Shown piece after piece: positions 47,876 through 52,857 of a stretch of DNA of 64,000 nucleotides (the stretch's first letter is position 1; each line of letters begins with the position of its first letter). The notes under the pieces are model-generated. The model did not search any database, was not told the DNA's origin, and saw only the letters and a list, made by a program, of their open reading frames with translations. The stretch covers positions 162,477 through 226,476 of the forward strand of contig QPMI01000168.1 of assembly GCA_004431415.1 (NCBI GenBank), written 5' to 3'. A program made the position numbers and the translations under genes. This DNA comes from Cyanophora paradoxa CCMP329. Taxonomy: Eukaryota > Plantae > Glaucophyta.

Positions 47876-48625
47876 CTATGCCCTCATGTATCCCGGACGG
47901 ATGCGCAATTTAGCGAATCCTGAAAGCATCGGCGCACCATTTGGAATCGAGTTAATCGGGTCAGATTGTGATGTAGCAACCCTTAGTATATTCTTGTTAA
48001 GCACCGGCAAATCCGTTTTATTGGATTCTTGGTAATCAATCGTTTTAGCGATTAATTCATTTGTTGCGGTCTTTTCTTCTTTGATTGGATCCGGTAGGAC
48101 ATCGAACGTAACATCGGGTTTCTTTGCTACCTTCTTTTTGGTTATCGGTTCCTCCGTTATCTTCTTCTCTTTCTCTACCTCTTCTGCGATACCATCAACG
48201 AGACTTTTAGCATGTCTGTATGGTACTGTTCTTAGATTACCTTTTGTTGATCTAATAAAGTAGCGGTTCCGGCGGTCTTTTTCTGAATAAGTTGAATATA
48301 GACGCTCACCACCATCGAGAAGTTTAAGAAGAGTCGATTTTTTCGCTACTTTATCAAGCGTTGCGCTTTTGAATTGCCCCTTTTTGATACCACGCTTAGC
48401 GCCCGGCATCTTGTTTAGCGGGACTTGATCAATAAGAGCGTTAGAATCGTTAGTATCATCTACCGGCGCCACAGCATGGGAATTAATTGTATTATCGATA
48501 GTCTTATCAATATCACCGCTTTCGTATGCTGCGGTTCCTTTCGATTTCTTGTATTGCTTCCGTTGTGGTTCTGCCTGTTCAACGGGTTTTTCTAAGAAAT
48601 TCTTCGGTTGAGTCTTACGAGCCAT
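47876..48625 (-). CDS. Lys-rich viral protein of unknown function (candidate core/genome-binding protein)
   Basis: 249-aa ATG-initiated ORF, tightly packed, viral base composition; no family recognised. Confidence 0.75.
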   Translation of the reverse strand: MARKTQPKNFLEKPVEQAEPQRKQYKKSKGTAAYESGDIDKTIDNTINSHAVAPVDDTNDSNALIDQVPLNKMPGAKRGIKKGQFKSATLDKVAKKSTLLKLLDGGERLYSTYSEKDRRNRYFIRSTKGNLRTVPYRHAKSLVDGIAEEVEKEKKITEEPITKKKVAKKPDVTFDVLPDPIKEEKTATNELIAKTIDYQESNKTDLPVLNKNILRVATSQSDPINSIPNGAPMLSGFAKLRIRPGYMRA

Positions 48626-48686: not shown

Positions 48687-49589
48687 TTAATAGTTTCGAC
48701 CAAACGGTAGATAAACAGCCTCTAAATCTCTTATGATACTCTTTAATGATGCTTTTGTTAGTTCTTGTTCATCTTCGGTGAAAAGTTCTAATGTCATTGA
48801 CCAATCCGTGGTAATATCAGTTTCTACACCATTCCAATACGTTAAACGCACTTTTAGCGTCTCAACTTCCACTAATCCGTTTTGTTCATGAATGATCATA
48901 GAGTTATTGGTAGAATCATATTTTAGAAGATGTCCTACCTCTTGGTCAATCTCAATTTTAGCGAGCGCTTTATCGTCGCTGGTATTCTTGCTTACATAAT
49001 TGCCTTTGAGTGGATCCACATGTAAAAGGATGTACGAATTAAACAGTAGATCGACCGCTATGACGCTGTCAATGTAATTGGTATATGTGTAAGCACCAAC
49101 CGTTACCGGTAAATCGAACAGAACCGATGGGTAACCTTCCGCTGACTCTTGCGGTACCGTTTCTGGGAATCCAAGGAAATTGGCTAAAATAAGACTATCA
49201 AACTTAATATTGAATTCACTTTCACACATAAATCTCAATGTCATTGTGATTGGATTATATGATACATTGAAGTGACGGGTATAAGTTGTTCCCGCTGTAC
49301 TATATACCTGTGTTGATATCGTAGCATTTAGAAGATTTACTAAACTATCTATGGTATATGATCCTTTCGCAATGAGATTATTTTTATTTTTAATAACACC
49401 TCCTGCGTCATATGTTGATGTTGTGAGTACTCCATCTTGGCTTAGATTGTAAATGTTATTGAACATTTCGAAATTAGTAACGCGACATGCTTTAACATTT
49501 TGGATTGCATGGGGAAGTTTATAAGAATAGTTTGTGGGGGTTCCTTCGTCCCGGTCTCGGGAATCAATATTTAGATAATAACGCGTCAT
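48687..49589 (-). CDS. Minor capsid protein (penton, single jelly-roll)
   Basis: LNIDSRDRD...Y.YKL...IQNV...NNIYN at the N-terminus and LKVRLTYWNG...DWSMTLEL at the C-terminus, a pattern recalled from NCLDV/PLV pentons. Confidence 0.85.
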   Translation of the reverse strand: MTRYYLNIDSRDRDEGTPTNYSYKLPHAIQNVKACRVTNFEMFNNIYNLSQDGVLTTSTYDAGGVIKNKNNLIAKGSYTIDSLVNLLNATISTQVYSTAGTTYTRHFNVSYNPITMTLRFMCESEFNIKFDSLILANFLGFPETVPQESAEGYPSVLFDLPVTVGAYTYTNYIDSVIAVDLLFNSYILLHVDPLKGNYVSKNTSDDKALAKIEIDQEVGHLLKYDSTNNSMIIHEQNGLVEVETLKVRLTYWNGVETDITTDWSMTLELFTEDEQELTKASLKSIIRDLEAVYLPFGRNY

Positions 49590-49642: not shown

Positions 49643-50869
49643 ATGTCGATTTCAGGCACAACGCTTAAGGACCTCCTTGTTACTCCCGGATCGGATCAAA
49701 TTTATCTATCACCCGGTCTTCAAATCGGAACCAACCCCAAATATAAGCCGTTCCTTGAACAGGTTCGCCCACGCGGTAACACTTTCGGATTCAAAACGAC
49801 CGCTTATTTTGATCTACCACGCAAGCAACTACTAAGTGGCGTTTCGCTTTACTTTAAGGTTACTACCGCTGGTGGTGTGGAATGCACACTACCCAATGGT
49901 GGCGCTTCTTTCATTAAAGAAGTTCGCTTTACCCATGGTGGGTTTAAGTATATGATTCCTGGTGATTGGATTACTGTAAACACTCTGATCGATAATGATT
50001 ACGCCACGCTGAGTAGCATGTATCTTTCGCTTGGACTTGATACCGAGACAAACCGCGCATCTACCAATTATTCATCTGAGTACGTAGTGAAAATTCCCGC
50101 TGCTTTCTGGGATGATAGTTACTTCCCCCTCTGTTGCCTGGCGGAAATGCCCGCTATTGAGGTAGACTTCCGCGAACCTTCGGTTGTAGAAGTTCCCGCT
50201 GGTGGATCTGTCGCCATGACTGATTGCGGGCTAATCTGTCAATTCGTTAATATCGCTTCTGCGGAGGCGGAGACTCTCATTAAAATGGCGAATGAACAGG
50301 GAGGTATTCGTATTCCGATTACGGAAGTCATCCACAAAAAGACGCGATCGCTGAAAACCGCCGATTCTGGTGAGGCGGTCGAGGTTTCACTCGCTAACGT
50401 TTCCGGTCTGGTTCATTCCATTATTATGACTGTTCGCGATGTCAACAAACTGGAGAAATACACTCATTCTGATTTCCGCGGTTACACTTCTGCGGTTAAA
50501 ATCGATGAATTCCAAATTTTCCATAATAACCGATCGCTTGAAATCTCTAATAAACCCATTTCTGGTTTCCTCTCCGCTGCTAATCATATTCCTACACATT
50601 ACAAGGGTTGCACTGTTGGAAACAATGACTTTGGCTTCGAAAATGCTTGTATCTACGGTGTTGTTCTCTCTAAATCTGGGAAGGATTCGCTCCATAATTC
50701 AGTCATGGGTTATCAAGATTTCTTCAACTCTGCAAGTTCGTACATGGATCTGACCGTTTCCGGTTGCACAGATGCTGCACCGGTTCAGGTTGACATTTAC
50801 GCGCTCCGTCACAATGTCATGATACTCAATGGCTACAACATTTCGACTCTGAAAGTCTCCAACTTTTAA
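49643..50869 (+). CDS. Major capsid protein (double jelly-roll), NCLDV-like motifs
   Basis: 408 aa, beta-rich: FG...FDLPRKQLL...G.SFIKEVRFTHGG...GDWI; VKIPAAFW...FPLCCL...IEVDF; VDIYALRHNVMILNG. Lies between penton and ATPase. Confidence 0.87.
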   Translation: MSISGTTLKDLLVTPGSDQIYLSPGLQIGTNPKYKPFLEQVRPRGNTFGFKTTAYFDLPRKQLLSGVSLYFKVTTAGGVECTLPNGGASFIKEVRFTHGGFKYMIPGDWITVNTLIDNDYATLSSMYLSLGLDTETNRASTNYSSEYVVKIPAAFWDDSYFPLCCLAEMPAIEVDFREPSVVEVPAGGSVAMTDCGLICQFVNIASAEAETLIKMANEQGGIRIPITEVIHKKTRSLKTADSGEAVEVSLANVSGLVHSIIMTVRDVNKLEKYTHSDFRGYTSAVKIDEFQIFHNNRSLEISNKPISGFLSAANHIPTHYKGCTVGNNDFGFENACIYGVVLSKSGKDSLHNSVMGYQDFFNSASSYMDLTVSGCTDAAPVQVDIYALRHNVMILNGYNISTLKVSNF

Positions 50870-50968: not shown

Positions 50969-51721
50969 ATGGATATAGATTTAAATGATATTCCCGAATT
51001 CGAGCCGGCAAAAACAGCTAAATTACCGTCGCGTTTCTTACTGGCTGGTAGGTCTAATTCTGGAAAAACGACATATTGCAAATATCTACTTTATGAACTG
51101 CGTGATAAGATCGATCAAATCGTAGTGTTTAGTTCCACTGCATTTACGGGTCAATTCAAAGATATAACGCATCCTGGAAATATCTACGAGGAATGGGACG
51201 ATAATGTGGTGATAAAACTAATTAGTATGCAAAAGAAACGAATCGAAAACAATGAGAAACATAATAGTTTGGTAATAATTTTAGATGACATGATCGGTTC
51301 CACACTGAATATGGAAACAAATATGACCTTAAAAAAACTTGTTACAAGTGGAAGACATTATAATATTACCGTAATTTTCAATGTTCAGCGTTTATGTTCT
51401 ATTTCTACTACCATTCGTCGTAATGTGGAATTCGTGGTTTTCTTCAATATTTTAGGGAATGAGAAAGAGTTTCAATGTGCTTATGATGAATATAACGCTG
51501 GAATGGATAGGAAGACCTACAAAGAACTACATAGACTTTGGGGTTACAATTATCAGACCGTCATAACTGGATTGCAAGGATATGATATAAAGACCTATAC
51601 CGATCGCGCAATATTGACAGATGATGACATGAAAGCGTTTCGCAAGTTTGTTAAGAAACGAGCGATAAAAAAGAGAGAATCGTTAAGAATTAGTAATGAA
51701 CCCACGACTATTATGGTTTAG
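50969..51721 (+). CDS. A32/FtsK-HerA-family genome packaging ATPase
   Basis: Walker A GRSNSGKT, Walker B IILDD, SGRHYNITVIFNVQ, IRRN. ATG at 50969 preferred over the TTG at 50915. Confidence 0.95.
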   Translation: MDIDLNDIPEFEPAKTAKLPSRFLLAGRSNSGKTTYCKYLLYELRDKIDQIVVFSSTAFTGQFKDITHPGNIYEEWDDNVVIKLISMQKKRIENNEKHNSLVIILDDMIGSTLNMETNMTLKKLVTSGRHYNITVIFNVQRLCSISTTIRRNVEFVVFFNILGNEKEFQCAYDEYNAGMDRKTYKELHRLWGYNYQTVITGLQGYDIKTYTDRAILTDDDMKAFRKFVKKRAIKKRESLRISNEPTTIMV

Positions 51722-51732
51722 GTTTGTTTACA

Positions 51733-52239
51733 GAGCATGAATTATTTTTATTAAACTTTTGGTTAAAAGTTACAGTGAATCGTGCGGAATCTTTGTAGAA
51801 GAGTCGCGAAAAAAGTCTTACTGTTTATCGTGCGGAATCTTGTGGAATTGTGCGGAATTATAGGGTTATCGTGCGGAATCGATTGTACAATGATCTCCTT
51901 ACTGTCTATCGTGCGGAGTCCTCGGAGACACTGCCCAGAAAAAGGTTTTATCGATTGAATTATCGATCTTGACACTGAGCCTTACGGCGATTTTCGAAAA
52001 GATTCGATGCTGTTACGGTGGATCGTGCGGTGATTCGATGAAGTGGTATTTTATCGATTGAATTATCGATCGTGAAACTAAAATTATCGATCGTGAAACT
52101 AAAATTATCGATCGTGAAACTAAAATTATCGATCGTGACACTGAGCCTTACGGCGATTTTCGAAAAGACTCGATGCTGTTACGGTGGATCGTGCGGTCGC
52201 GCGAGGTTATTGTTTGGAGACACTGCGCCAAGCTGAGCT
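51733..52239 (-). repeat. Right terminal inverted repeat (507 bp)
   Basis: Reverse complement of 41433-41939. Confidence 0.97.
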
Positions 52240-52244
52240 GCATG

Positions 52245-52560
52245 TACCTGATGTTGATAACAGTGGTATGCTTTGCGAGATACCATGTATGCTGCTCTCC
52301 AAACATTCGGTCCAGGGGTTGTCATTTTCCACTCCAACTTCGAGCCTGGCGAAATCGTTGCGATGAAAGCCGTTCTTCAGCGAGGGGTACGAGAATGTCT
52401 GGCGATTCGGAAGCAGTGCTGAAATCTCTTTGCAGAGTCACATATACACGGAAGTGCTGCGCAATGGTGGGGCACGCGAATGGTATCCAGGATCGCTATA
52501 AAAATCACATCGACCCTTTCGTCCCATGTAGATGGTCACCAGAGTTCTCCAAGCCTGCCC
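52245..52560 (+). pseudogene. 3' remainder of the interrupted host gene
   Basis: Removing the element and one TSD restores LYHQLCKH-VPDVDNS-(intron)-GVVIFHSNFEPGEIVAMKAVLQRG. End approximate. Confidence 0.65.
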
Positions 52561-52664: not shown

Positions 52665-52857
52665 CCGGAGCGGGTGCGACCCTTCCTCTTGGAGTGGGCG
52701 ACGGCGGTGCCCTACATCCGCGCCCCCGAGGCCTTCCGGCAGCTCGCCCTCGGCGCGGTGCCGGGCGCCCTGGCCTCGACCGCGCCCTCTCGCGGCACCG
52801 GTACCCGGGCCCCAGGGAGGCCAGCGATGCCGACCTGGCAAGCCTGGGCCCCGGCCC
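52665..52857 (+). pseudogene. Decayed inverted copy of the last TIR exon of the LRR-TIR gene
   Basis: PERVRPFLLEWATAVPYIRAPEAFRQLALGAV is nearly identical to the reverse complement of ~34930-35160, followed by deletions. Confidence 0.88.

Follow-up and report, generated by a model that had tools for sequence, protein, structure and literature searches.

An integrated element in a host gene

The DNA analysed here is a 64,000-nt stretch of the Cyanophora paradoxa CCMP329 genome (GCA_004431415.1, contig QPMI01000168.1, 162,477-226,476, forward strand), referred to as the window, and all coordinates are positions in it. The window carries a virus-like element of 10,807 bp (~10.8 kb), bounded by 507-bp inverted repeats, which forms an AT-rich island (40% GC, against 68-69% in the 5 kb of either flank) among GC-rich, intron-rich eukaryotic genes. 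Seven intact, intron-free ORFs cover 83% of its length; the integrase, the replicase, two ORFs without a family and the penton are encoded on the minus strand, and the major capsid protein (MCP) and the packaging ATPase on the plus strand:

41428-41432: left copy of the 5-bp target-site duplication, identical 5 bases at both ends
41433-41939 (+): left terminal inverted repeat (TIR), 507 bp, 100% complementary to the right arm
41932-42990 (-): retroviral-type DDE integrase of 352 aa (Pfam rve at E 6e-4, short of the curated cut-off)
42990-47048 (-): replicase, 1352 aa, likely a PolB palm and SF1 helicase with a Cys/His tail (Pfam, and motifs by eye)
47279-47533 (-): basic ORF, 84 aa, no confident family (ORF list, profile searches)
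47876-48625 (-): Lys-rich ORF, 249 aa, no confident family (ORF list, profile searches)
48687-49589 (-): penton (minor capsid protein) of the IDSRDRD type, 300 aa (HMM scores, family profile)
49643-50869 (+): MCP, 408 aa (AlphaFold2 model, structure searches, profile comparisons)
50969-51721 (+): A32-like DNA-packaging ATPase, 250 aa (Pfam Pox_A32, E 5e-15)
51733-52239 (-): right TIR, 507 bp, complementary to the left arm
52240-52244: right copy of the 5-bp target-site duplication, matching the left copy

The insertion is real and recent. The left junction is crossed by a contig that is spliced at a GT-AG intron (41311-41365) in all four of the four likely-RNA runs, with 67 and 101 matching bases on its two sides, and the host reading frame resumes in frame beyond the element once one copy of the duplication is discounted. 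The element interrupts one of the coding exons in a spliced host gene (40200-41432 and 52240-52300), the N-terminal part of which is coiled-coil; an in-frame stop lies upstream, at about position 40,935. Within the TIR (41433-41939) lie three tandem units of 21 bp, a 74-bp duplication with its copies 166 bp apart, and a repeated motif of 15 bp, which occurs 12 times across the element; these repeats are candidate origin or protein-binding sites.

In the integrase, candidate D/D/E motifs could be read near residues 61, 120 and 160. Its start is overlapped at 42990 by the stop of the replicase, the C-terminal Cys/His-rich tail of which (42990-43200) gave no profile match and presumably resembles an HNH or endonuclease VII-type domain. 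The replicase matched SF1/AAA helicase families of Pfam at residues 912-1057 and 1204-1249, and candidate palm motifs A, B and C were picked out by eye near residues 578, 710 and 825; in the candidate motif C, another residue stands in place of the first Asp. The same replacement is reported for Tlr1-like pPolB-S1H proteins (PMC11161782), and the replicase likely joins a family-B polymerase palm to an SF1 helicase in the manner of these proteins. The 249-aa Lys-rich ORF is possibly a DNA-binding or core protein. No protease family was matched in Pfam by the seven ORFs, including the two small ones without a family, and no RNA polymerase or late transcription factor was recognisable among them. 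VLTF2, VLTF3, RuvC and HUH likewise had no Pfam match among the seven ORFs, five of which are assigned other functions; Mriya48 and HUH had no match in general Pfam and PHROGs searches, run without a dedicated Mriya48 profile and leaving the 249-aa ORF without a family.

Capsid proteins and packaging ATPase

The original prediction, made from the letters of the DNA, held that a set of capsid motifs parallels the pattern of NCLDV MCPs. All of the motifs quoted were located in the 408-aa ORF at 49643-50869 (+), starting at residues 48 (FG..FDLPRKQLL), 91 (IKEVRFTHGG), 107 (GDWI), 151 (IPAAFW), 161 (FPLCCL), 172 (IEVDF) and 385 (IYALRHNVMILNG). The AlphaFold2 model of the protein (mean pLDDT 64.8) is a double jelly-roll, the fold that the prediction required. 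As a single sequence, the MCP matched no Pfam family at E<=1 and no PDB sequence at E<=10, and an HMM built from 12 NCLDV MCPs gave it -0.7 bits, the highest of 1000 shuffles (700 reported) reaching 7.7 bits; because the lone score falls inside the shuffle range, the motifs in one sequence are not separable from chance. The NCLDV set consisted of 15 ORFs from viral contigs selected by their ATPases, less two duplicates and one fragment; Pfam confirmed two of its members, and the 12 belong mostly to one clade.

The MCP was aligned with five relatives, those found among 1.84 billion representatives, one of which is labelled Cyanophora paradoxa in EukProt. HHalign gave this alignment a probability of 97.4% (E 1.3e-11) with the 12 NCLDV MCPs, as opposed to 0.15% with the insect Polinton MCPs, both control sets being narrow: the latter came from insect loci in which 11 of the 77 matching ORFs were intact, and the 10 that were aligned are 71-92% identical. 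Each motif fell in register with its NCLDV counterpart in the HHalign alignment. The parallel, and the greater closeness to NCLDV than to the animal Polinton MCPs tested, were upheld at the level of the family profile. The signal with NCLDV was 94% when the most distant relative (P0006, E 3e-4 to the window MCP) was left out, and 69% (E 4e-5) once the family was cut to its three nearest members. P0006 itself scored 23.6 bits against the NCLDV HMM and bridges the MCP family to NCLDV. Conversely, the family HMM placed all 15 NCLDV MCPs on top among 851 ORFs (20.6-47.6 bits, the next scoring 3.8), and gave the Polinton MCPs 0.7 bits or less. In Pfam, the MCP matched neither Capsid_N nor Capsid_NCLDV, to which control NCLDV MCPs scored 153-207 bits; nor did any of the six family members match the Polinton-type PF21738 at E<=1, to which a control Polinton MCP scored 571 bits. 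The nearest clusters in the ESM Atlas (0.97-0.99) were viral proteins of 394-433 aa, 10-18% of them with Capsid_N, ahead of Polinton double jelly-roll and Sputnik clusters (0.95), although these values have low recognition value. They suggest, as a lead, that the nearest kin of the MCP are divergent NCLDV-like capsids and not canonical ones. Environmental relatives of the MCP and ATPase (P0004, P0005, P0006 and P0007) lie on contigs of 3-16 kb.

One could envisage that the element is an ordinary, isolated Polinton-like virus (PLV) whose likeness to NCLDV reflects an ancestral, unadorned double jelly-roll and reference sets dominated by NCLDV, in which case similar scores would be expected of other non-animal PLVs. 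Most Polinton and PLV MCP models are reported to match NCLDV capsids best (PMC10120064), and a best structural match of this kind is generic for most Polinton-like viruses; the HHpred values to NCLDV capsids in Table S2 of that paper are unexceptional for Cyanophora (92-98.5%) beside other protist EVE MCPs (96.5-98.6%), among the rows listed. Moreover, the MCP controls used here were confined to insect Polintons and NCLDV. On the other hand, the insect Polinton profile, at similar depth, reached 0.05% with the same NCLDV profile to which the MCP family reached 97%. Together with the penton results described below, this leads us to regard an ordinary PLV as unlikely.

The adjacent penton had been said to begin with the NCLDV-type IDSRDRD, and the motif does lie at residue 8 of the divergent ORF at 48687-49589 (-), the homology holding even with the motif removed. 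A scan for IDSRDRD yielded 23 viral contigs, of which 14 have giant-virus MAG labels and 21 have the motif in an ORF, and 17 unique segments with the motif removed were built into a giant-virus penton HMM. This HMM gave the window penton 24.1 bits (best of 1000 shuffles, 13.3); a second HMM, from 11 Polinton pentons, none of which carries IDSRDRD, gave it 5.9 bits (shuffle maximum, 10.7). Its residues 8-269 are 25% identical to a giant-virus MAG protein. Pfam gave no match for the penton, and its own family profile, with eight of nine rows from outside the window, matched PBCV-1 P1v1 (E 4e-30) and P1 (E 1e-14); judged by these profiles, it is a member of the IDSRDRD family that includes PBCV-1 P1. 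An independent check comes from Bulzu et al. 2025 (PMC12220804), whose Table S6 lists 5,817 elements from 19 host groups: the NCLDV penton profile matches 15 of the 156 glaucophyte elements and 0 of the 5,661 others, a restriction to glaucophytes that argues against an ordinary PLV; Polinton or PLV MCP profiles match only two of the 156.

The evidence from the packaging ATPase was weaker. It scored 25-51 bits with 21 NCLDV ATPases and 6-10 bits with four Polinton ATPases, but the NCLDV set had been picked by patterns taken partly from the window ATPase, so that its higher scores are biased. In an ATPase tree the window protein had a very long branch and no supported placement, and in the same Table S6 a PLV profile accounts for 107 glaucophyte ATPases and the NCLDV profile for one (PMC12220804), which would fit an ordinary PLV. 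The broader proposal, that the structural module is a small-genome relative of the giant-virus one, is partly supported, through the family profiles of the MCP and penton; the MCP taken alone stayed at shuffle level.

The long ATPase branch would also be expected if a Tlr1-type element had captured its MCP, penton and ATPase from a giant virus or mriyavirus sharing its host, followed by fast divergence; the element would then be a chimera that says little about giant-virus origins. Swapping of replication and capsid modules is reported to be common (10.64898/2026.10.13.758929; 10.64898/2026.06.19.733378), and giant-virus insertions have been reported in C. paradoxa (PMC12344493). Against such a capture, the environmental MCP relatives on their 3-16 kb contigs grade stepwise towards NCLDV MCPs by HMM score, which fits an old lineage of small viruses, and the MCP is without the N-terminal signature and the insertions of the NCLDV MCPs aligned; both observations are still compatible with capture, to which we nevertheless assign a low probability.

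Relation to known elements and viruses

We consider it probable that the locus is an intact 10.8-kb Polinton-like element in a GC-rich, intron-rich protist nuclear genome, with an MCP and a penton closer to giant-virus proteins than to the animal Polinton proteins tested, and with replication and integration genes likely of the Tlr1 type. As a small dsDNA element that encodes a double jelly-roll MCP, a penton and an A32 ATPase, it agrees with a PLV in the broad sense, and its 507-bp TIRs, 5-bp target-site duplication and rve match (below the cut-off) agree with the integrated form. Of the features of the Tlr1 type, the rve and helicase domains were matched in Pfam, and the palm was read by eye as candidate motifs. 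Tlr1-type PLVs (PMC11161782) share with it the rve integrase, the fusion of palm (putative here) and SF1 helicase with an altered motif C, the TIRs and the absence of a capsid protease, but differ in that the capsid module of the window element is NCLDV-like by profile; the palm, TP and vOTU domains of such PLVs could be traced in it at most as motifs.

Since the coat proteins are nearer to those of giant viruses than to the animal Polinton ones tested, the element likely belongs among the small giant-virus relatives known from water samples. In Bellas and Sommaruga 2026 (10.64898/2026.06.19.733378), PLVs of 15-30 kb whose capsid modules are NCLDV-like form a continuum, comprising the Zephyrvirus cluster, VC40, Zoravirus (VC102), VC134, VC218 and GKS2/Alpenseevirus. 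Such NCLDV-like PLVs have an MCP profile related to Nucleocytoviricota MCPs, as was found here (97%; 69-94% with members removed), and resemble the element in PLV-sized genome, penton and ATPase; Zephyr members can have PolB-SF1 helicase fusions comparable to the window replicase, and Zora and VC218 often have rve. Unlike them, the element is 10.8 kb long, is integrated with a target-site duplication, and has no recognisable gene for Mriya48, HUH, VLTF3, a methyltransferase or a lipase (10.64898/2026.06.19.733378). It most likely lies in or beside this assemblage (Zephyr, Zora, VC40), the capsid sequences compared being those of insect Polintons and NCLDV. The main text of the preprint, figures and supplements aside, does not mention Cyanophora or glaucophytes, although its seeds included the 2023 MCP set, and it states that no endogenous Zephyrvirus was found.

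Other assignments were considered. Mriyaviruses (10.1101/2024.02.29.582850) and NDDVs (10.1101/2022.07.28.501842) are described as 35-45 kb NCLDV relatives with VLTF2, VLTF3 and RuvC and without a polymerase. Mriyaviricetes (Yaraviridae, Gamadviridae/NDDV) are alike in their small genome and their NCLDV-related MCP and packaging ATPase, and some are endogenous in algae, but they also carry HUH, and the window element is a quarter of their size and has an integrase and a likely polymerase (10.1101/2024.02.29.582850). We rejected membership on these grounds, namely the 10.8-kb length, the integrase, the likely polymerase and the lack of Pfam matches to VLTF2, VLTF3, RuvC and HUH. Animal Maverick/Polintons (Polintoviricetes) have in common with the element TIRs, a short target-site duplication, an rve integrase, an A32 ATPase, a double jelly-roll MCP and a penton; in contrast to them, the element has no PF21738 match, no profile link to the insect Polinton MCP or penton, no cysteine protease, and a helicase-fused replicase. 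It was excluded from Polintoviricetes because its MCP does not match PF21738 (HHalign 0.15% with the insect Polinton MCPs) and because no ORF matched a protease family, where an Ulp1/adenain-type gene would be expected. Nucleocytoviricota (Megaviricetes, Pokkesviricetes) were rejected because no Capsid_N/Capsid_NCLDV, VLTF3, D5 primase-helicase or RNA-primed PolB was found, and Virophaviricetes because the element shows no virophage-type MCP and protease.

Elements of this kind in C. paradoxa have been catalogued before. Six C. paradoxa MCPs appear in Table S2 of Bellas et al. 2023 (PMC10120064); in one of them, 240 of the first 299 residues are identical to the window MCP (~80%, counted by hand), and the HHpred match given for it is an ascovirus MCP (97%). 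Table S4 gives 366 MCP hits in the C. paradoxa genome and two clusters marked 'new', which by column count have no group name. The C. paradoxa EVEs of that paper and of PMC12220804 are of the same MCP family as the window element, and the catalogued glaucophyte elements, like it, often have rve, an SF1 helicase and an A32 ATPase. The kind (NCLDV-like PLVs) is thus known and the MCP family catalogued (Bellas et al. 2023; 10.64898/2026.06.19.733378). The main texts of PMC10120064 and PMC12220804, figures aside, contain no statement that we could find placing the Cyanophora elements near NCLDV capsids, and we found no placement of glaucophyte elements in the NCLDV-like PLV group in print, figures and preprint supplements aside.

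Such a placement would add to the group a very small, integrated, host-linked member. The case for a giant-virus origin from Polinton-like ancestors comes mostly from metagenomic contigs without a host; if the Cyanophora family belongs in the group, it would provide a host, deep alignments from its many long-read copies, the smallest group genome among the reports that we found, and a culturable system for studying virion formation and dependence on giant viruses. A polymerase and integrase combined with an NCLDV-type capsid, penton and ATPase are the gene set expected of a Polinton-to-NCLDV intermediate. It is conceivable, though we hold it as a tentative reading with the odds against it, that the Cyanophora elements represent a host-anchored, integrating branch of small viruses at the base of the giant-virus capsid lineage, in which a 10.8-kb, seven-gene genome joins a Polinton-derived, protein-primed polymerase and integrase to the NCLDV-type capsid, penton and ATPase. 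If so, an intact intermediate would be at hand in an alga that serves as a culturable model, for induction and for structure determination of its capsid; if the element is a chimera or an ordinary PLV, it is merely another copy of a catalogued family.

Mode of life, copies and transcripts

The gene content and the related viruses allow a life cycle to be proposed. The rve integrase would have inserted the linear genome and produced the 5-bp duplication, the polymerase-helicase would replicate the linear DNA by protein priming, starting at the inverted ends, and the A32 ATPase would pack it into a predicted small, protease-free icosahedral shell of MCP trimers with penton vertices. As the element has no transcription genes, transcription must come from outside. 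Dependence on a giant virus is described for several PLVs, and another PLV is reported to be a nuclear lytic virus (10.64898/2026.06.19.733378). By analogy with other PLVs, the element most likely lies dormant as a provirus until a co-infecting giant virus activates it, a course to which we give about an even chance; autonomous nuclear replication seems appreciably less likely, and spread mainly as a transposon less likely again.

In two DNA runs, single-copy flank contigs had depths of 69-125 and near-identical element contigs 246-324, and many variants of the element were present at 85-99% identity; depths and variants suggest a multi-copy family, contig depth not being a copy number. More than half of the element's words were present in 14 of the 24 runs listed, all with one organism label. 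The perfect TIRs and the many variant copies would be accounted for if virions are no longer made and the element spreads within the genome as a transposon only, its capsid genes being intact because the copy is young. Consistent with this, several of the listed C. paradoxa MCP gene calls, in a genome with so many hits, are incomplete (PMC10120064), and viral genes in C. paradoxa are reported to be methylated (PMC12344493). Yet all seven ORFs are open in this copy, relatives of 55-85% identity retain the capsid gene (PMC10120064 Table S2), and distant relatives come from environmental assemblies, and we think it improbable that the element is a transposon and nothing else.

In four likely-RNA runs the host transcript extends into the left TIR. 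RNA contigs also span the integrase and the 3' end of the replicase (41673-44300); they drop in depth away from the left end, and one run contained a GT-AG splice of a 55-nt cryptic intron on the plus strand (43989-44043); given the fall in depth and the plus-strand splice, antisense read-through out of the host gene explains this RNA better than viral expression does. Such antisense RNA could feed silencing of the element family. Outside the element, a pair of 107-bp inverted repeats (97%; 35054-35160 and 52665-52771) is possibly a small host repeat or the end of a non-autonomous transposon, and three adjacent leucine-rich-repeat genes with 69-bp repeat units lie to the left of the insertion (36200-39850). 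At positions 1-23000 of the window the DNA is mostly 49-61% GC, compared with 65-80% in the remaining host sequence, and holds housekeeping-like host genes with numerous short introns.
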